Source: Candidatus Hodarchaeota archaeon (lineage in GTDB: Archaea > Asgardarchaeota > Heimdallarchaeia > Hodarchaeales > Hodarchaeaceae). Taken from it: a stretch of 10,890 nt of DNA. Below are positions 1,671-9,276 of this stretch, in pieces. The position numbers and the translations under genes are program-made. Under the pieces are notes generated by a model that saw nothing but the letters and a program-made list of their open reading frames with translations, ran no database searches and was not told the DNA's origin. The stretch is from contig JAEOTQ010000190.1 of NCBI GenBank assembly GCA_016839785.1, positions 1 to 10,890 on the forward strand, read 5' to 3'. Every line of letters starts with the position of its first letter. Positions within the stretch are counted from its first letter, which is position 1.

Positions 1671-1768
1671 GTTAATAAATTGGTGTGGATTGACTAACAA
1701 TAGTACAATTAAATAGTATTATGTTATTCATTGTTTTATTATTAAACTAATCAAAAGTGGAGTTATTT

Positions 1769-3694
1769 ATGGGAGAAAGAAATTTACTTCGATTGGGAGA
1801 GATTATAGCCCTATTAACCATATTTTTTGTCCATAATATTACTATGTTGCCAGCGAGTACTAATAATGTTATGTGGTCTAGTGATTTCCGGCCTCAGGGA
1901 GGATACTTGGATGAAATAATGATCAAAGTATATAGTAATTTCTCTCAAGCGATCGAAGCACTTCAGAAGGGCGAAATAGATGCTTATGATTACGAGGTGT
2001 TTCCTGAATATGAACTTGATCTTCGTCATAATCCAAACATCAGTGTGAGCTATAGTCCAAGTGCAAGCTACAGGACGTTTATTTTGAATTGCGAACGATT
2101 TCCCACCAATATCACCGCGTTTCGTCGTGCAATGGCTTTTGGTATGGATAAATACAAGGCTACAGAGGAGATTATGGGAGATCTGGGAACACCATTAGAT
2201 AGTTATATTCCTCCAGCTCTAACGGAATGGGAAGTCGAGAGTGTTTTAGAAACCCGCTTCTATGATGCGGATTTCATTTCTGGGAATGCATCTCTGGAGG
2301 CTGCTGGATTCAAAGACTTGGATGACGATGGTTGGCGTGAATACGATGCAAACAGTAATGGTGAGTGGGATGCCGACGTAGATTTGGACGATAATGATCC
2401 ACTTCTTGTAATCAATATCATGGCGTCAACTGGATTGGACATCGCTATTATTACCTCTGAAGTACTTCGTGATGGTTTAGCAAAAATGGGTATCCGTTCT
2501 AGGGTTGAGGAGGTAGATTGGTCAGGACCTTATTGGCCAAAGGTTTTTGCTGGTGATTATTGGGTCGCATGTTATGAACTCACATTTAAACCTACGTTTT
2601 TACCCCCTAAAGCCCTATATACCGACTATCATTCTGATGGAGAGTGGAATCCAGTTCTTCATCGTTTCTATAACACTACTATCGATTCTGTTCTTGATAA
2701 GATGCTAGCAGCAACCGCTGTTACTGATATAAAGAAATACTCCCGTGAAGCTGCACAACTACTGGCTTATGAACAGCCTGAAATTCCCATCTATAGTCCT
2801 TTAACCATTAATGCTTACCGTAATGATAAATTTGAGGGTTTTCTAGAGTTCGCGGGAAGGGGTACCGCTAGTACAGCCAACCCTTACGTAGCAACGAAAG
2901 TTCACCTAAAGGAATCCAAAGGGGGTCTTTACGGTGGAATGCTTACTTATTCTGCAATGGATGATATTTCGAACAGAAATCCTTTTAGATTCCCAGATCT
3001 TATTGGTGTCAGGGCCTTCATTGAAAACTCTATCTACGGAGGCCTTTGGCAACCAGATCCAACCACGTGGGATCCAATCCCAAATTTGGCTTGGAACTGG
3101 GAGACCGAACCAACAACGGTTCAAGTTGTTGCTGGTATTCAAGCTGGTCAAAAGTTTACCTTTTACTTATACAAAAATGCTACTTGGCATGATGGTCAAC
3201 CTGTTACCTCAAAAGATGTCAAGTTTTCCTTTGAACTTCCCCGGAATTATTATTATCCTGATGTTTTTTTTGTTCCTGTAGATATTAATGATATTTATCG
3301 TATTGATACCCCTGATAATTATACAGTTGAACTCTATGTCAATAGAACTGATATCTTTGCGTGGATCGATATTACTAGTTATTCACGGATTCTCCCGTGG
3401 CATATTTGGAAGGATGTGGAAAATCTTACGGCCTTTGAACCCACTGAAGCACAAGTAATAGGTTTTGGCCCTTACAAGTGGAATGAACGTGTACCAGGCC
3501 AATATGTCAGCCTATTGCGCCACGAGAACTGGCATTTTTCTATATGTGATGAAGCTGGACCATCAACAACTTCTTCACAAGAGAGTACTACTTCCAAAGA
3601 TTCATATGGATTTGAATTTATTTCAATATTTACTATAGTAGGAATTGCTCTCATTTATATCAATCGAAGAAGAAAATGGTGGAATAAATCTTAA
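1769..3694 (+). CDS. ABC transporter substrate-binding protein, family 5 (OppA/DppA-like), permuted domain order, C-terminally anchored
   Basis: N-terminal hydrophobic signal. SBP_bac_5 motifs: YLDEIMIKVY..ALQKGEIDA, FRRAMAFGMDK, PNLAWNWE..FTFYLYKNATWHDGQPVTSKDVKFSF and IGFGPYK..VPGQYVSLLRHENW. Ser/Thr linker, then YGF, TM helix and RRRK tail. ATG 1769 follows GGAG (1759-1762); GTG 1757 is an alternative start. Confidence 0.9.
   Translation: MGERNLLRLGEIIALLTIFFVHNITMLPASTNNVMWSSDFRPQGGYLDEIMIKVYSNFSQAIEALQKGEIDAYDYEVFPEYELDLRHNPNISVSYSPSASYRTFILNCERFPTNITAFRRAMAFGMDKYKATEEIMGDLGTPLDSYIPPALTEWEVESVLETRFYDADFISGNASLEAAGFKDLDDDGWREYDANSNGEWDADVDLDDNDPLLVINIMASTGLDIAIITSEVLRDGLAKMGIRSRVEEVDWSGPYWPKVFAGDYWVACYELTFKPTFLPPKALYTDYHSDGEWNPVLHRFYNTTIDSVLDKMLAATAVTDIKKYSREAAQLLAYEQPEIPIYSPLTINAYRNDKFEGFLEFAGRGTASTANPYVATKVHLKESKGGLYGGMLTYSAMDDISNRNPFRFPDLIGVRAFIENSIYGGLWQPDPTTWDPIPNLAWNWETEPTTVQVVAGIQAGQKFTFYLYKNATWHDGQPVTSKDVKFSFELPRNYYYPDVFFVPVDINDIYRIDTPDNYTVELYVNRTDIFAWIDITSYSRILPWHIWKDVENLTAFEPTEAQVIGFGPYKWNERVPGQYVSLLRHENWHFSICDEAGPSTTSSQESTTSKDSYGFEFISIFTIVGIALIYINRRRKWWNKS
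3557..3694 (+). other. PGF-CTERM-like C-terminal sorting/anchoring signal
   Basis: GPSTTSSQESTTSKDS linker, then YGFE, hydrophobic FISIFTIVGIALIYI and basic NRRRK. This is the tripartite layout of archaeosortase substrates. Confidence 0.65.
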
Positions 3695-3702
3695 ACTGAT
3701 AT

Positions 3703-6700
3703 ATGGAACACAGGAACTCCAATAAGGATTCATTGCTAATGCTAACGCAAGAACAAGGAATATTGGTATTATTGTTATTACCTGTTATTATCATCCCTAA
3801 TATATCGTGCATACTTGGAGGTAGTAAAACCTACGAAAGTTTTCATCAAGAAGTAAAATTCATTCCCCAACAACCTGAAATATTCCAAGATATTTCCTTA
3901 GTAAATCCTGATTCTGGAACCGCTTTTTCTCATTTAATTGGACAACCTGGTTCGATTCATTCAGTTGTTTTTTCGCCAGATGAGAGGATAGTGGCCTCTG
4001 GGAGTACTGATGGCAATATCAAGCTGTGGGATGTGATTACAGGAGATGAGTTACCACTCGACTTGACAGGACATAGAAAAACAGTGAATTCGCTTGCTTT
4101 CTCCCCTGACGGGACAATTCTAGCTTCAGGGAGTGGTGATTCCTACATTTGTCTCTGGGATGTATCAACTGGAAAATTGATCCAAAATCTCTCTGGCCAT
4201 ACAAAAGCTGTATATTCCGTTGTATTTTCTCCAGATGGGACTACCCTCATCTCAGGGAGTTTAGATACTACCATTAAGCTGTGGAATGTTACTAGTGGAG
4301 AAGAATGGCCATTTTTGTTAGAACACCCCACTCCCGTCTTTTCAGTTGCTGTTTCACCAAACAGGGAAATTCTTGCCTCGGGTGGTGGAGATGGAACTAT
4401 TTACCTCTGGAATTCCACAAGTGGAAAAAGGCTACTAGACTTGACTGAGTCAACAGATGATGTAGTATCAGTTGTCTTCTCACCTGATGGAACTCTCCTC
4501 GCTTCGGGAAGTGCTGTAGGAACCATTACACTTTGGGACATAACTACTGAAGGAACGCGCCCATCAGTTCTAACAGAATCTGAAGGACAATTATTTTCAC
4601 TTGCTTTCTCGCCAATTAGAAAAATTATCGCTTCAAGCTCAGAAAATGGTGTTATTCACCTAAGGAATGCAACTTTTGGTGGAGGAGAATTATTATTAGA
4701 TCTAATAGAACAGGGAGGGGCTGTGTTTTCAGTTACTTTTTCACCTGATGGGACAATCCTCGCCTCGGGAGGTGCTGATGGTGTCATTAGACTATGGAAC
4801 GTGGTTTTTGAGGAAGAAATCCAGACTCTCTTAGGACATGAAGAGGGTGTGATGTCAGTCGATTTTTCCCTTAACGGAACGCTTGCTTCCGGTAGTGCGG
4901 ACAATACAATCAAGCTTTGGAATGTGAGTACTGGACGAGTGACTCAAAACTTGACTGGACATACTGATGATGTCTTAACAGTCACTTTCTCACCGAATGG
5001 AACCCTCCTCGCCTCAGGAAGTGCAGATAACACAATCAGACTTTGGAATATGAAGACTAGAAATGTGAGTCAAGTCACACCAGGGCATCTAGAAGATGTT
5101 TTATCAGTCTCTTTTTCTCCAAATAATACAATCTTAGCCTCAGGATGTGCTGATGGCACCATTAAACTTTGGAATATTAATACTAGAACTTGGAAAGACC
5201 TTCTGGGGTATGGTTCTTCAGTAGAGTCAGTCGTATTTTCTCCAAATGGATCACTCCTTGCATCAGGTAGTAGTGCTGATACCAATATTACACTTTGGAA
5301 TCTCGATTCTGGCACCTCGAAAGAGCTCTCAGGACATATTTCTCCCGTAAAGTCAGTTGCTTTTTCTCCAAATGGGTCATTACTTGCTTCAGGTGGCGTA
5401 GATGGTTCATTAAAACTTTGGAGTATTGACAAAGGAGAAGCTATGTGGCGTGATCTTACAGGCCATGAAACAAGTGTTAGGTCTGTTACATTTTCTCCAA
5501 ATGGGTCACTTCTTGCTTCTGCAGCTGCAGATGGGACTATAAAGCTCTGGAACGCGACAACAGCAGCTTTAATTCAGATTTTGATCGGGAAATCTGATGG
5601 TATCCGATCAATCGCCTTTTCCCCTGATGGAAGACTCCTAGCCTCAGGGAATACCAATCGTACTATTCAACTTTGGCCTGTTGTTTCGATGCAGTTTGAT
5701 ACTGATATAGACGGAATGTTGGATACTTGGGAACTTCAATATGGATTAAATCCAGTTATTTTTATCGACAAGTTCGATGACAATGATAATGATGGACTGA
5801 TCAATAGTCTGGAGTTTTTTCTAGAAACTGATCCTCTTAACAGTGACTCTGATGATGATGGTTTGCCAGATAACTGGGAATATTTGGGAGGTTTAGCTCC
5901 TACAGTTACTAATCCTAATGATGATAACGATATGGATGGTTTACCAGCATATTATGAGTACCAGATGGGTTTGAATCCCCGGATAAATGATGCTGCTTTT
6001 GATAAAGACAACGATAGTTTAACCAACCTGCAAGAGTATCAGTTTGGAAGTTGGGCCAATCAGACTGATAGTGATCTGGATGGTATGCCTGACTGGTGGG
6101 AATTCAAATATACTGATGCTTTTTATAGCTTTAACCCTAGGAACGGTTCTGATGCCATAGATGATCCAGATATCGATTGGGTGAGTAATCTCGATGAATT
6201 TAAAGGACGAAGTAATCCCCGAGATTTCTGGAGTGTCCCTCTTTTTACCTTCAGTGCTTTCCTCGCCATCAGAATAATGATTCTTCTCATTATAGCAGTT
6301 TTAGGTATTCTTCTCATTATAAATTCTAGAAGAAAGACTCAGAAAGCGTTAATAACCCACTTTAAGGCACCTGATTATCCAACAGCCTTGAAAATACGTA
6401 AATCCAAGTACAAAGATTATACTGCTTTTCTTCAAGCAGGAGAAGATGCTAAAAAGTTGAAAAGACTAGGTAATTCAGTATATTTTCAAGGAAAATTTAG
6501 TGAAGCCTTCAATCACTATGATCAGGCCCTGACTATTTTTGAACGCCTTGATAATCTCTCATTAATTGCTGAAACCATATTTAAGATAGTATGGGTACAA
6601 AAAGAAAACCAGACTTTAACTGCTAAAAGCTCCGTCCTAGATCGATTCCCAAAGCAACCTTTTAGTAATTCTATTGCTAATGTATTTAATCAGATGGTTC

Positions 6701-7221
6701 AAGCCCTGATCGCTGAAACAGAAAAGAGATGGGAAGCTGCAGAGAAATTATGGACAGCTGCTCTTCAAACGGAAGGATTAGGAGTAGAATATCAGTTACT
6801 TTGTGAGGGAGCTTTAGTGAGATCTGAATTCAGGAATTGGCTTATTAATCCAGTAGATCCTATTAAAGAAAGAATGAAATCTCGGTTAATGGAGTGGCAA
6901 AAGGCTTCGGAAAACCACCAATTCTTTGATATGATGTGTGAGGCCTATTTACTCCATGCAAGAATTGCCATTGCTTCTTTTCAATTTGAAGAAGTTGAAG
7001 AGTGGTTATCGCTCTGTTCAACAACAGCTGCAACAGCAGGATTAACTATTTATCTGAATAAAGTTGATTCTGAGTTCGAGGCGTTTCTGCAACATAAACA
7101 AAGAGTGTTTCACCTTTTAAAAGAAGAAAAAACACTTTCACAAGAGGAACAAATAAAAATTATACAGAGTTATTTACGTAAGGTTCAACAGATAGTTAAG
7201 GATGAAGAGAATGAATCTTAA
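3703..7221 (+). CDS. single-pass membrane protein: signal segment, 14 WD40 repeats, 7 DxDxDG (TSP3-like) Ca-binding motifs, TM helix, TPR/alpha-helical tail
   Basis: Hydrophobic GILVLLLLPVIII near the N-terminus. 14 GH..V.S..FSP[DN]G..LASGS.D.TI.LW[DN] repeats (3937-5676). Seven DxDxD[GSW]xxxxxE motifs (5698-6198). TM segment AFLAIRIMILLIIAVLGILLII followed by SRRK (about 6256-6336). TPR-like LGNSVYFQGKFSEAFNHYDQALTIFERL from about 6448. Confidence 0.9.
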   Translation: MEHRNSNKDSLLMLTQEQGILVLLLLPVIIIPNISCILGGSKTYESFHQEVKFIPQQPEIFQDISLVNPDSGTAFSHLIGQPGSIHSVVFSPDERIVASGSTDGNIKLWDVITGDELPLDLTGHRKTVNSLAFSPDGTILASGSGDSYICLWDVSTGKLIQNLSGHTKAVYSVVFSPDGTTLISGSLDTTIKLWNVTSGEEWPFLLEHPTPVFSVAVSPNREILASGGGDGTIYLWNSTSGKRLLDLTESTDDVVSVVFSPDGTLLASGSAVGTITLWDITTEGTRPSVLTESEGQLFSLAFSPIRKIIASSSENGVIHLRNATFGGGELLLDLIEQGGAVFSVTFSPDGTILASGGADGVIRLWNVVFEEEIQTLLGHEEGVMSVDFSLNGTLASGSADNTIKLWNVSTGRVTQNLTGHTDDVLTVTFSPNGTLLASGSADNTIRLWNMKTRNVSQVTPGHLEDVLSVSFSPNNTILASGCADGTIKLWNINTRTWKDLLGYGSSVESVVFSPNGSLLASGSSADTNITLWNLDSGTSKELSGHISPVKSVAFSPNGSLLASGGVDGSLKLWSIDKGEAMWRDLTGHETSVRSVTFSPNGSLLASAAADGTIKLWNATTAALIQILIGKSDGIRSIAFSPDGRLLASGNTNRTIQLWPVVSMQFDTDIDGMLDTWELQYGLNPVIFIDKFDDNDNDGLINSLEFFLETDPLNSDSDDDGLPDNWEYLGGLAPTVTNPNDDNDMDGLPAYYEYQMGLNPRINDAAFDKDNDSLTNLQEYQFGSWANQTDSDLDGMPDWWEFKYTDAFYSFNPRNGSDAIDDPDIDWVSNLDEFKGRSNPRDFWSVPLFTFSAFLAIRIMILLIIAVLGILLIINSRRKTQKALITHFKAPDYPTALKIRKSKYKDYTAFLQAGEDAKKLKRLGNSVYFQGKFSEAFNHYDQALTIFERLDNLSLIAETIFKIVWVQKENQTLTAKSSVLDRFPKQPFSNSIANVFNQMVQALIAETEKRWEAAEKLWTAALQTEGLGVEYQLLCEGALVRSEFRNWLINPVDPIKERMKSRLMEWQKASENHQFFDMMCEAYLLHARIAIASFQFEEVEEWLSLCSTTAATAGLTIYLNKVDSEFEAFLQHKQRVFHLLKEEKTLSQEEQIKIIQSYLRKVQQIVKDEENES
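3937..5676 (+). repeat. 14 tandem WD40 repeats (about 41-44 aa each; two 7-bladed propellers predicted)
   Basis: Counted by hand in the translation. Repeats 1-7 start at 3937 and repeats 8-14 start at 4831. Confidence 0.9.
5698..6198 (+). repeat. seven acidic Ca-binding repeats (bacterial TSP3-like, Dx[DN]xDG)
   Basis: DTDIDGMLDTWE, DNDNDGLINSLE, DSDDDGLPDNWE, DNDMDGLPAYYE, DKDNDSLTNLQE, DSDLDGMPDWWE and DPDIDWVSNLDE; most are followed by a G-L-N-P-like turn. Confidence 0.85.
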
Positions 7222-7248
7222 AAAAATTGGTTGATAGTTTTTTTTTAA
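7218..7248. terminator. bidirectional oligo-T terminator between convergent genes
   Basis: A7 at 7220-7226 (T7 on the minus strand) and T9 at 7238-7246 flank the 23-nt gap between the two stop codons. Confidence 0.6.
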
Positions 7249-7994
7249 TCAGTTCTTAAAAATATATTCATTGCTCTTTGCAAGGCTTTGCTGAATTCGT
7301 GCTCCATTGGAAAAATCTTCGTTTTGTGAGCCATCTCATAAGCTATATTGCAAGAACAGGAAATGGATCCAACGTATTTCATCCCCTCCTTTTGTAATTC
7401 TCCCGCCCAATTTTCGAGATCAACATTCATCTCTACTTCTGGAACTTGGTTAAATAGGACATAAACCTCCCAACTGCTTATCGGTTTGGCTCTCTTGTAA
7501 AGAATCTCAAGCATTATTTTGGTGCCATTTACTTCGTAAGAGTCTGGACGGAGTAATAGAATCGCTTTATTTGACAAAGCAATCAGATTTACTACGATTA
7601 AGTGCCATCCTGGAGGTGTATCGAAAATAATATAGTCGTAGTTCTTTTCGAGGGCGTTAAAGTCTGCTATCATCTGTTTTAGTATAGAGAGAAACCATTC
7701 TTGATCAGAGCTCATGACTTTCTCATTTGGATCGAATTTATTATTTGTAAAAACCACATCTAAATTTGGTTTAACTGCATGTTCAATAATACTATCAAAA
7801 TTGACAGATTCATTGAGATAATCATTGAAATAAGCGTTAGGTTCGCGATCAAAGATATCGAAAAAAGATGGCATCATAAAATCATTTTCTATAAGCAATA
7901 CCCGATTTTTAAGTGACAATAAAAACGCTATATTGACCGCTACAGTGGTTTTCCCCGTTCCTCCCTTATAACTGTGAACCAGTATTTTTTCCAT
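7245..7994 (-). CDS. MinD/ParA-family (SIMIBI) ATPase
   Basis: Deviant Walker A KGGTGKTT right after the N-terminus (MEKILVHSYKGGTGKTT), Walker A' region LIENDFMMP, Walker B YDYIIFDTPPG, and LFNQVP. ATG 7994 has an SD-like GAGGGTGG upstream; the alternative ATG 8018 overlaps the upstream stop as TAATG. Confidence 0.92.
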   Translation of the reverse strand: MEKILVHSYKGGTGKTTVAVNIAFLLSLKNRVLLIENDFMMPSFFDIFDREPNAYFNDYLNESVNFDSIIEHAVKPNLDVVFTNNKFDPNEKVMSSDQEWFLSILKQMIADFNALEKNYDYIIFDTPPGWHLIVVNLIALSNKAILLLRPDSYEVNGTKIMLEILYKRAKPISSWEVYVLFNQVPEVEMNVDLENWAGELQKEGMKYVGSISCSCNIAYEMAHKTKIFPMEHEFSKALQRAMNIFLRTD

Positions 7995-8017
7995 AATAGA
8001 AATCCACCCTCTCATCA

Positions 8018-8554
8018 TTAATGTGCATAATAATAAATTTTCCCTTGTGACTCTCTGAAATCGAGGAGTGCATCTCTCATGAATTTTTCAATATGTTCAC
8101 GGATAATATCTGGATCTATTTTCAGGTATTCCATCAGATCCTCTATTGTCACTCCTGGTACCTTTTGTAATTGTAACTCGATTAAAGCAACAGCAGTATC
8201 ATTTTCCTCTTGAGAAAGAGTTTGTCGCATGCTCCAGTTCTTCAAACTCCATTCTTTTTTTAAAGTTGTCAAAAACTCACTTATAGCTCGCTTGATGAAG
8301 TCATCAGTACTTGTTATTGCGTAACGTACTTTAATATGGGGACTAGAGATTATCTTATGGATTTCATTGTACAAATCTTCGTCGATTTCTAATGTCATTC
8401 CATGATAGACTTTATTGACACAGAAACGTAGCACCTCGGCTTTATTCTTCAGTTTAAATTCTTCTTGAATGCTTTGAAACTTTTCCGTATCCTCTATATC
8501 GAGATCCACCCGAATTGGAAACTTTCGTTGTTTTTCATGATTACTAGACAACAT
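8018..8554 (-). CDS. predicted DNA-binding protein: two ribbon-helix-helix-like units plus a C-terminal winged helix
   Basis: aa 12-50 (FPIRVDLDIEDTEKFQSIQEEFKLKNKAEVLRFCVNKVY) and aa 53-95 (MTLEIDEDLYNEIHKI...STDDFIKRAISEFL) fit the strand-helix-turn-[SN]xx[DE]x[IL][RK]x[AC][IV] RHH pattern. aa 113-178 (LSQEE..GVTIEDLMEYLKIDPDIIREHIEKF..LLDFRESQGKIYYYA) fit a wHTH. The CDS is well supported; the domain calls are by pattern recognition only. Confidence 0.7.
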   Translation of the reverse strand: MLSSNHEKQRKFPIRVDLDIEDTEKFQSIQEEFKLKNKAEVLRFCVNKVYHGMTLEIDEDLYNEIHKIISSPHIKVRYAITSTDDFIKRAISEFLTTLKKEWSLKNWSMRQTLSQEENDTAVALIELQLQKVPGVTIEDLMEYLKIDPDIIREHIEKFMRDALLDFRESQGKIYYYAH

Positions 8555-8739
8555 GCACACCAAGGTTTTGTATTTAGAACATATTTTCCATTAATTTCGT
8601 AAAATAATATATGTTATTATTACACAACATGTCCATGGTAAAACTTATAAGTATCATTGTTTTACAATATTTACCATTAAGATGTAATGGTTTCTTATAT
8701 CTTAATGAACAAAGAAAAGACATGGAGGCAAATAGAAAA
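8555..8739. promoter_or_regulatory. divergent promoter region with palindromic TATA-like element and operator-like repeats
   Basis: ACTTATAAGT perfect palindrome (8643-8652) behind purine-rich GGTAAA. ATTGT-N3-ACAAT (8656-8668). ACCATTA-N5-TAATGGT (8673-8691). Direct repeat ATATTT[T/A]CCATTAA (8581-8594 and 8667-8680). SD GGAGG at 8724-8728. Confidence 0.55.
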
Positions 8740-9276
8740 ATGAGGAAAAAATTATCTGTTCTGGTTCTATCTGTTTTCATTTTAATGCTATTGCCAGCAA
8801 TATCAGGAAGTGCAAAAAAACCTCTTATAGGTACAATGAGCTTGGAATATAATCTGCTTTGGCCTGGATACCAAGCTGATATACCTGATTGGATAGGAAC
8901 TATCACCCTAGATACTGACGGTGATGGCATAAATGAAGAATATGGTATGGTATTCTTCTGCATTGGAACAGGAAAACCGTTTGACACAGATGTCAGAGGA
9001 AATGTAGTGTTTTTTGGGGAAATTTGGGCCATCTATGACTATGTCGTGTTCGATTTCGAGACCCAATATTTCGAACACGGTGATGTAGTCCTATTGGGGA
9101 CTGATGAAGGAACAGTTTCTCTTAAAAACAGTAAATATAGAATGAACGGCGTTGTAACAGAGACTAATGATGAATGTTCAAAATGGCTAGGTCGCAGTGT
9201 GCATATGAATGGCATTATTGAATGGGACCCATTTGGAGCTCCTCAATATGCTCCTGGTACATTTAGAATAAACTGA
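8740..9276 (+). CDS. secreted beta-rich hypothetical protein with a DTDGDG loop
   Basis: ATG 8740 follows GGAGG (8724-8728) and gives a clean signal peptide, MRKKLSVLVLSVFILMLLPAISGSA. The mature part has alternating beta-strand patterns. The tracked start at 8611 runs through the promoter region. Confidence 0.8.
   Translation: MRKKLSVLVLSVFILMLLPAISGSAKKPLIGTMSLEYNLLWPGYQADIPDWIGTITLDTDGDGINEEYGMVFFCIGTGKPFDTDVRGNVVFFGEIWAIYDYVVFDFETQYFEHGDVVLLGTDEGTVSLKNSKYRMNGVVTETNDECSKWLGRSVHMNGIIEWDPFGAPQYAPGTFRIN

Follow-up and report, generated by a model that had tools for sequence, protein, structure and literature searches.

A candidate binding-protein-coupled surface receptor with predicted extracellular WD40 propellers and a TPR-like cytoplasmic tail in a genus of Hodarchaeota

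The activation of membrane receptors by solute-binding proteins (SBPs) is established, and the sections of a review that deal with it (PMC8050422) name DppA-Tap, AibA-TlpB and CBP-ChiS as examples with family-5 binding proteins, describe the SBP genes of sensor kinases as adjoining signalling genes, and report for Halobacterium salinarum that basB and cosB immediately precede basT and cosT, which encode the transducers, with the tethered SBP required for the response. Here we describe a gene pair of the same order in a 10,890-bp stretch of archaeal DNA, hereafter the window, which is the complete contig C170 (JAEOTQ010000190.1) of a Candidatus Hodarchaeota genome (G000; 4.04 Mb in 248 contigs, 36% G+C, completeness estimate 84.5%). 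An open reading frame (ORF) at 3703..7221 on the forward strand, with an ATG start, encodes a receptor-like protein of 1172 amino acids (aa) directly behind the gene for a membrane-anchored SBP of family 5 (SBP5). Inspection of the pair and its relatives leads us to propose that the two form a surface sensor coupled to a binding protein, with a cytoplasmic scaffold relaying the signal, a function inferred from gene order, fusions and domain content to which we give about even credence. The SBP5 gene and the parts of the receptor are laid out as follows (TM, transmembrane; +, forward strand).

1757..3694, +: SBP_bac_5 gene, 645 aa, 8 bp upstream of the receptor start; proposed co-receptor
3703..3825, +: N-terminal region, aa 1-41, with a charged n-region (R4, K8) and a hydrophobic core at aa 19-41; signal peptide or N-terminal anchor
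3901..4800, +: WD40 blades 1-7, first propeller, aa 67-366, from Pfam, blade alignment and sequons; predicted extracellular
4801..5679, +: WD40 blades 8-14, second propeller, aa 367-659, from Pfam and blade alignment; predicted extracellular
5680..6225, +: stalk of seven TSP3-like acidic repeats, aa 660-841, from motifs, a sub-threshold Pfam TSP3_bac match and relatives
6226..6327, +: TM segment, aa 842-875, with its hydrophobic core at 852-875 and then SRRK, from hydropathy and family positive-inside counts
6328..7218, +: predicted cytoplasmic tail, aa 876-1172, from AlphaFold2, VIA-align, Pfam TPR and family matches

Comparison with the described systems reveals a shared logic built from different parts. 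In the sections of the SBP-receptor review considered here (PMC8050422), the term 'propeller' was not found. BasT/BasB and CosT/CosB, as described there, resemble the window pair in being archaeal, in having a tethered SBP encoded upstream, and in gene order and proposed logic, whereas BasT and CosT carry a dCache-like sensor and a methyl-accepting chemotaxis domain in place of the double WD40 propeller, TSP3-like stalk and TPR-like solenoid found here, and there is no homology between them. The Tap-DppA, TlpB-AibA and ChiS-CBP pairs match our proposal in that a ligand-loaded family-5 SBP activates a membrane receptor, the receptors in those cases being sensor kinases or chemoreceptors built on four-helix-bundle or Cache domains. 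With regard to the stalk, Myxococcus MtsD and CglD also display runs of TSP3-like acidic repeats on prokaryotic surface proteins, but the window protein scores far under the cut-offs of their models (27 vs 800 and 15 vs 400, respectively). MtsD and CglD are lipoproteins or adhesins that lack a TM-solenoid cassette. Single-pass proteins with an extracellular propeller include Mycobacterium tuberculosis PknD (an NHL propeller, TM helix and kinase), integrin alpha, whose propeller has calcium-binding loops, the YWTD proteins LDLR/LRP, and sortilin. Their propellers are of the NHL, FG-GAP, YWTD and Vps10 types, not canonical WD40, the output of PknD is a kinase, and none of these proteins is known to have a TSP3 stalk or a TPR tail.

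The ectodomain of the window protein was first characterized by its repeats. Pfam PF00400 matches the receptor at E 1.5e-140 and 452.1 bits (cut-off 27) over 13 stretches, and blade-by-blade cutting and alignment recovers, at aa 67-659, exactly the 14 repeats that a preliminary description of this DNA had counted; the Pfam count falls one short because blade 6 is degenerate and terminates in LRN instead of LWD/N. Mean pairwise identity among the blades is 45% in the blade alignment, many seven-blade propeller models match the receptor in the Pfam scan, and the 14 blades would fit two seven-bladed propellers. A tandem-repeat finder detects a single array in this region, two copies of 126 bp, and the WD40 region is therefore without recent DNA-level amplification. 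Between the propellers and the membrane stands the acidic stalk. Seven DxDxDG motifs had been read here, of which the seven repeats stand while the strict pattern is kept in five only (aa 666, 693, 715, 741 and 789); the degenerate repeats read DKDNDS at aa 767 and DPDIDW at aa 821-826, where relatives have D-x-D-G-D-W. Every repeat is followed by an aromatic-acidic W/Y-E segment, and the last one constitutes a family-conserved juxtamembrane element, D-x-D-x-D-W...NPRDFWSVPL, the columns invariant across 10 receptors being D666...W826, F842, W843, S844 and P846. Pfam TSP3_bac (PF18884) matches the window protein under its cut-off of 25 (E 0.0019, 18.4 bits), and relatives with the same stalk exceed that cut-off (P0012 at 42 bits, P0023 at 33.6 bits). 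The stalk is putatively calcium-binding, as its acidic motif suggests.

Membrane topology was addressed through indirect family tests in place of a dedicated predictor, namely hydropathy, counts of lysine plus arginine (K+R), N-x-S/T sequons and the ectodomain types of relatives. Hydropathy supports both the N-terminal hydrophobic segment (aa 19-41, windows up to 2.8) and the single TM helix followed by SRRK (aa 852-875, up to 3.15) of the preliminary description. For the positive-inside test, K+R was counted over 15 residues on either side of the TM helix in 61 non-redundant relatives; the mean is 4.62 after the helix versus 1.56 before it, with the count higher after the helix in 57 relatives, equal in 4 and reversed in none. 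Sequons are likewise asymmetric. The WD region of the receptor holds 16 where 6.3 +/- 2.2 are expected, a number reached in 0 of 2000 shuffles, and many of them fall at two recurring sites at which WD becomes WN-x-S/T and SPDG becomes SPNG-S/T. Across the family, the ratio of observed to expected sequons is 1.59 for ectodomains (727 vs 457) and 0.69 for tails (57 vs 83), as compared with a background in G000 of 1.40 for 132 secreted-like ORFs, whose hydrophobic segment is N-terminal only, and 0.98 for 696 cytoplasmic-like ORFs lacking a hydrophobic window. The ratios for ectodomains and tails match these secreted-like and cytoplasmic-like classes, respectively, and together with the positive-inside counts place the WD40 region outside and the tail inside. 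In relatives the WD40 position is occupied by a solute-binding protein or a NosD-type beta-helix, both of which are extracytoplasmic domain types, and an N-terminal hydrophobic segment is present in 28 of 37 apparently full-length relatives, those with an initial M and a long ectodomain. The WD40-out, tail-in topology, on which the preliminary description could have foundered, agrees with the positive-inside and sequon statistics and is well supported, as is the assignment of the receptor as a bitopic, type-I-like surface protein. The receptor start codon itself is uncertain, because the representative of a 93% orthologue begins at the position equivalent to M13.

Canonical WD40 propellers are treated as intracellular scaffolds. 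That assumption fails in this lineage close to eukaryotes, because four of the five WD40 ORFs found in G000 are predicted surface proteins and the one on contig C247 alone is soluble. For comparison, the sections of a survey of prokaryotic WD40 proteins available to us (PMC5587647) contain no wording on signal peptides, secretion or the periplasm. Besides the window protein, the predicted surface WD40 proteins of G000 are encoded at C166:9341-11812, C33:8168-10354 and C182:45839-48124; one has the order Peptidase_S8 (E 1.6e-49), WD40, TSP3 and TM, and two join WD40 to a Beta-lactamase-family domain with a C-terminal anchor (E 3.1e-28 and 1.3e-31).

The cytoplasmic part had been described as about 300 residues of helical sequence with a TPR-like unit and no kinase, cyclase or helix-turn-helix (HTH) motif. 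This description holds for the 297-residue tail, which folds into 14 helices in a confident AlphaFold2 model (mean predicted local distance difference test score, pLDDT, 93.2; predicted template modelling score, pTM, 0.87; 45-row alignment) and yields no Pfam or NCBIfam match to any of the three. The features read in the receptor, from the N-terminal segment to the tail, far exceed what chance would give. It begins with a conserved juxtamembrane helix pair, L..L.APDY.TALK (A889, P890, Y892, A895), and continues as a solenoid. Pfam returns TPR families alone, in one recognisable unit at aa 917-947 (window 6451-6543) with TPR_2 under its cut-off of 27 (E 2.2e-5, 24.7 bits), and NCBIfam returns no match on the tail. 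A sequence search of the PDB finds matches through this one TPR unit only, and the nearest ESM Atlas clusters are generic bacterial TPR_12. In structural comparison the top matches are all TPR proteins, scaffolds and peptide-binding regulators among them: Foldseek against the PDB gives nothing at E <= 1e-3 (best E 4.9e-3), with SNAP, LGN/Pins, Rap and KLC as the best sub-threshold matches, and VIA-align gives Z of 15.5 for the TPR of TSK/BRU1, 15.1 for APPBP2, 14.8 for DdvA, 13.9 for LGN, 13.8 for PlcR and 13.5 for NprR, values that lie little above the common-arrangement level of helical repeats. The tail model superposes on LGN/Pins, PlcR, NprR, Rap and SNAP over 226-262 residues (Z 13.5-15.5), but the likeness is at the level of fold only, with 7-13% identity, and none of these proteins is membrane-tethered in this manner. 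In LGN/Pins, PlcR, NprR, Rap and SNAP, the groove of the solenoid is the binding site for peptides or partner proteins. Because Z barely exceeds generic helical-repeat likeness, the tail is modelled as a TPR-like solenoid of no described family. Pfam and NCBIfam likewise match it to no known enzyme, a finding that would have counted against the preliminary description, and among the known receptor output modules neither a methyl-accepting chemotaxis protein (MCP) domain nor a histidine kinase, GGDEF/EAL or Ser/Thr kinase domain is found by these two collections in the 1172 residues or in the tail by itself. Since these defining modules were searched for and are absent, the receptor was not assigned to the described receptor families.

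To define the family, the tail was used alone as a query against 1.84 billion representative proteins, which gave 546 proteins at E <= 1e-3, 127 at <= 1e-10 and 51 at <= 1e-30. In the best matches the tail is always C-terminal, in proteins of 500-1420 aa, and the order runs from the element D-x-D-G-D-W...NPRDFWSVPL through the TM helix to the tail. The idea that one tail serves varying ectodomains in Asgard genomes is confirmed by this search, in which the tail follows WD40, SBP_bac_5, beta-helix and other domains. Counted over the 61 stored tail matches at local E <= 1e-30, the classes are WD40 (35), SBP_bac_5 (1; P0004, Pfam E 5.4e-58), other (6; P0011 with NosD/beta-helix, P0007 and P0023 unassigned, and three stalk-only fragments), short fragments (10) and soluble proteins (9). 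The soluble relatives, at 25-30% identity, lack the first ~40 residues and carry the tail core behind TPR_12 arrays; P0060 runs on into HisKA+HATPase_c and P0068 into a MarR-type winged helix, and P0052 and P0056 are similar to these by eye only. Labelled relatives come from a metagenome-assembled genome (MAG) of a Candidatus Heimdallarchaeota archaeon, with a tail 93% identical, and from a Promethearchaeota archaeon MAG (79%).

The distribution of the family is narrow. Among 41 related genomes there are 26 full-length tail matches (E <= 2e-49), all within the GTDB genus of the window, where 13 of 22 genomes carry 1-5 copies each; other genera of the class yield weak, soluble-type matches only. 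Within a phylum sample of 301 genomes drawn evenly from 70 genera, a tail match at E <= 1e-10 occurs in 16 genomes, 15 of them from the same genus, and the one match beyond it (2e-11) has 21% identity. Among the genomes searched, full-length tails are confined to one genus, and the membrane cassette is therefore read as a genus-level invention atop a wider soluble TPR module. That is to say, the stalk-TM-tail cassette is a lineage-specific module joined to different ectodomains, a conclusion that is well supported. Neither Pfam nor NCBIfam has a model for the cassette, and a literature search, whose scope ended at subscription-only papers and supplements, found no description of the receptor architecture, in keeping with its not being an already described family. 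The parts (WD40, TSP3-like repeats, a TPR-like fold) are thus familiar, while the cassette and the combination appear new by the Pfam, NCBIfam and literature searches.

The gene upstream of the receptor, at 1757-3694 (+), encodes an SBP_bac_5 protein (Pfam E 7.4e-45) consisting of an N-terminal hydrophobic segment, the binding domain, an S/T-rich linker and a C-terminal TM anchor of the Heimdall-CTERM type (24.7 bits vs a cut-off of 24, at C170:3602-3676). G000 has 32 matches to this NCBIfam sorting signal, 17 of them above the cut-off, and a literature search for 'Heimdall-CTERM' found no papers. A weak Opp4A-like match (E 1e-24) lies under the cut-off. This SBP5 is also circularly permuted relative to canonical SBP5, an order common to seven relatives: aa 46-295 correspond to the C-terminal positions 143-365 of the Pfam model and aa 424-592 to the N-terminal positions 63-237 of SapA, and BLAST aligns it to canonical relatives in swapped order, with aa 464-493 falling on 105-134 and aa 269-348 on 545-617.

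Gene neighbourhoods were compared for 23 of the 26 receptor genes (G015:C73, G015:C282 and G002:C19 were left out), of which 8 have SBP5 and 15 have WD40 as the ectodomain. Of the 15 WD40-type receptors, 10 have an SBP5 gene as their direct upstream neighbour, in 9 cases on the same strand; by comparison, G000 has only 10 SBP5-like ORFs among its 3865 ORFs of at least 100 aa. Two further WD40 receptors have the gene of a different C-terminally anchored surface protein directly upstream. That protein (L013:6616-7680 and L014:11036-12901) is unassigned, signal-bearing and sequon-rich, and combines an S/T-rich linker with a C-terminal TM anchor whose last residues are basic. The receptor-linked SBP5s form three dissimilar groups; the receptors at SBP5-linked loci show 37-48% overall identity to the window protein, its two close orthologues excepted, and receptor tails are 34-40% identical to that of the window, apart from its three closest relatives. 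Because the linked SBP5s are so unlike and the receptors so diverged, the SBP5-receptor pairing is old within the family.

Fusions describe the same association in a second form. In a tree of the tails, the SBP5-fused forms make up one clade of 8 rows, with a support of 99 in the Shimodaira-Hasegawa-like approximate likelihood-ratio test (SH-aLRT), that is nested among WD40 forms and adjoins the L018 WD40 group with a support of 88. In the G000 paralogue on contig C60, the fused SBP5 aligns collinearly over 616 residues, at 45.8% identity, with the free SBP5 upstream of the L018 receptor; this value is close to its 52-54% identity with other fused forms, and its matches to the other SBP5 groups are only short and local. 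The simplest history would be that an SBP5 gene and a WD40 receptor gene stood side by side and that, with loss of the WD40 part, SBP5 was fused onto the stalk, TM helix and tail. Because a sister lineage has fused SBP5 straight onto the cassette and lost WD40, we take SBP5 as the sensing element and the cassette as the transducer, and gene order together with the fusion supplies a concrete candidate partner for the receptor. For 15 receptor genes in 5 genomes, no BPD_transp_1 permease lies within 36 kb on the contig, an absence limited in reach because several receptor contigs are short; matches elsewhere number 12-21 in each of the five genomes (13 in G000). The SBP gene thus appears linked to a receptor gene, not to a transporter gene. 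Prediction of a complex between SBP5 aa 40-610 and receptor aa 360-700, which comprises one propeller and the first stalk repeats, returned a score of 0.00 from 10-row alignments and gave no answer.

As a working model of the proposed sensor, the anchored SBP5 would bind a solute (peptide, oligosaccharide or metal, which the family does not specify) and would dock on, or act beside, the platform formed by the WD40 double propeller, a role that the other surface protein would take at two loci. Stalk, TM helix and tail would transduce, with the change crossing the single helix probably via altered oligomerisation, and the signal would consist in the binding or release of a partner protein by the cytoplasmic solenoid. 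Domain-fusion logic, and that only, points to winged-helix regulators, histidine kinases or longin/roadblock-type modules as likely partners downstream. Docking, transmembrane signalling and output are each modelled on the analogy with SBP receptors and on the fusion.

Several observations weigh against this reading. The tail has no recognisable output, and the receptor neighbourhoods share no conserved gene for a cytoplasmic partner; the pair of genes downstream in the window, for a ParA-like ATPase and a 181-aa protein, recurs in 4 of 22 loci only (window, L007, L008 and L021). Three of the 15 WD40 forms have no surface-protein gene upstream, one being at a contig end and two forming a tandem pair, and gene order is not independent evidence because all the genomes are close kin. 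The tail tree, which covers 59 tails, comes from a quick maximum-likelihood search, is rooted at its midpoint and carries SH-aLRT support only. Nine of the 37 apparently full-length relatives lack an N-terminal hydrophobic segment, although these are probably truncated gene calls. Contact between SBP5 and WD40 is put forward by analogy, and on their 180-aa stalk the propellers may stand far above a short-tethered SBP5. Lastly, WD40 is also fused to secreted hydrolases in G000, which suggests a general extracellular binding module as opposed to a dedicated SBP5 dock.

Inspection of relatives reveals a further domain, here called X, of ~160 aa, which follows the tail or replaces its end in P0022, P0051 and P0065. 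It is absent from the window protein; its profile finds three other ORFs in G000. One copy is fused to, and stands in front of, a winged helix in G000 (C173:8980-9687, minus strand; HTH_IclR E 1.1e-4), and at loci L034-L043 of the same genus domain X immediately follows the TM helix in type-I-like proteins whose ectodomains are beta-helix or Fn3-like, or stands behind soluble TPR arrays. Pfam has no match to it, its profile finds nothing in PDB sequences at E < 0.6, and an ESM Atlas search gave no usable match. The AlphaFold2 model (pLDDT 90.5, 20-row alignment) has the order beta-beta-alpha-beta-beta-beta-alpha-alpha, for which VIA-align returns a Lokiarchaeal Roadblock-Longin protein as best match (Z 12.4, root-mean-square deviation 2.9 A over 135 residues), followed by Lst4 (11.6), a GATOR1 complex chain (8fw5_B, 9.3), an FLCN-FNIP2 chain (6nzd_H, 9.2), a C9orf72-SMCR8 chain (7o2w_A, 9.0) and VAMP7 (8.8). 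Foldseek against the PDB gives longin-type matches at E 2e-3 to 1e-2 and none at <= 1e-3. The longin-like domain family regulates small GTPases in eukaryotes, and the position of domain X behind membrane helices links surface sensing to that family. Near the winged-helix fusion, at a distance of 3 kb, lies the gene of another stalked protein (C173:3333-6077, +), with a PQQ/FG-GAP-type propeller, TSP3 repeats (35.4 bits), a TM helix and a short tail.

The presence of domain X behind the same tail and the HTH and kinase modules fused to the tail core speak more for a signalling scaffold than for a passive anchor. The passive case would be an adhesin or structural surface protein, whose propellers bind to other cells, to mineral or polymer surfaces or to the envelope of the same cell, with the calcium-stiffened stalk as spacer, the solenoid as an anchoring or positioning device and no signal passed. 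This account, which we judge possible but rather unlikely, draws on weak NCBIfam matches to proteins that serve cohesion and gliding in Myxococcus (MtsD E 9.3e-7, CglD E 0.0043), on several other G000 surface proteins that stand on TSP3-like stalks, on the absence of enzymatic output in Pfam and NCBIfam, and on ectodomains as rich in sequons as those of surface glycoproteins. A conserved tail of 297 aa, shared by 51 proteins at E <= 1e-30 and always C-terminal in the membrane forms listed, nevertheless exceeds what an anchor needs, and in other surface proteins of G000 the C-terminus is a short TM anchor. Homologues of the tail core include soluble proteins whose outputs are HTH or histidine-kinase modules, and the replacement of WD40 by a solute-binding protein, along with the tight SBP5 linkage, suits sensing better than adhesion.

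The same SBP5 linkage could instead serve nutrition. On that account, which we consider unlikely, the propellers would hold detrital proteins or peptides, or processing proteins, while SBP5 feeds a distant transporter and the tail clusters the platform, with no signalling involved. Peptide metabolism is indeed suggested by the fusion of other surface WD40 proteins of G000 to Peptidase_S8 and Beta-lactamase-family domains and by the oligopeptide-type character of the SBP5, through its sub-threshold Opp4A-like match, and BPD_transp_1 permeases are encoded elsewhere in the genome. No permease, however, is near any of the 15 receptor genes checked, an SBP5 fused to the cassette would be tethered to a non-transporter, and the kinship of the tail core is with regulators, as its HTH and histidine-kinase fusions indicate.

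A cytoplasmic protocoatomer-type protein of propeller and alpha-solenoid, with the hydrophobic segments as buried helices, has the order discussed for protocoatomers and seen in a cluster within the available part of a preprint on Asgard solenoids (PMC13734099), but it is hardly credible given two segments of membrane-grade hydropathy, positive-inside counts and a sequon asymmetry that favour a membrane protein, an acidic-repeat stalk and TM helix that put propeller and solenoid on opposite sides of the membrane, and relatives in which solute-binding or NosD-like beta-helix ectodomains replace the propeller. Scans for Asgard protocoatomers by propeller-then-solenoid order would wrongly collect this receptor family unless topology is checked.

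Returning to the proposed sensor, the cassette represents an unannotated, lineage-specific candidate transducer without catalytic output, as in many eukaryotic receptors. To our knowledge, non-catalytic receptor tails are rare among described prokaryotic sensors. Extracellular canonical WD40 propellers combined with catalytically silent receptor tails are surprising for Asgard cell biology, with the qualifications that the family is narrow and its function inferred. A bolder conjecture, which we regard as doubtful, is that the genus runs a eukaryote-style receptor network of interchangeable parts, in which the window protein is the nutrient-sensing arm and the logic of receptor, scaffold and GTPase is Rag/GATOR-like. 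Such a network would present WD40, SBP5, beta-helix or Fn3-like ectodomains, either raised on a calcium stalk or set directly at the membrane, and its cytoplasmic adaptors would be TPR-like solenoids, longin domains of FLCN/Lst4/Nprl2 type, or the two together. The SBP5 co-receptor would load the WD40 platform, and the solenoid would relay to modules of longin/roadblock and small GTPase or to winged-helix regulators. If true, logic resembling Rag/GATOR nutrient sensing would already exist in an archaeon closely related to eukaryotes.

The organism is known solely through sediment metagenomes; the sequencing runs that contain its DNA come from 8 studies of metagenomes from marine or other sediments, and no RNA sequencing run matching the window is listed. 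A sigma-70 promoter and terminator scan of the window stayed at background level, its model not being applicable to an archaeon.

Downstream of the receptor, the window encodes a ParA/MinD-type ATPase at 7245-8018 on the minus strand (AAA_31 E 9.4e-22), which overlaps by one base the gene for the 181-aa protein at 8018-8563 (-). The latter has, by eye, a ribbon-helix-helix-like start and a winged-helix-like end, and no Pfam match. The two were set aside as tail partners on the count of loci given above and on their convergent orientation to the receptor. The gene at 8611-9276 (+) encodes a small secreted-looking protein with a signal-like start and a DTDGDG motif, which matches no family and is kept in the two closest genomes. 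At other loci, a protein combining MalT-like TPR with a carbon-nitrogen hydrolase is encoded downstream of the receptor on the same strand (L015:11872-14382 and L024:2140-4554) or two genes downstream of it (L016:2772-4292), and the member of this MalT-like/carbon-nitrogen hydrolase group on contig C188 of G000 shows a weak match to the tail (E 1.7e-5).

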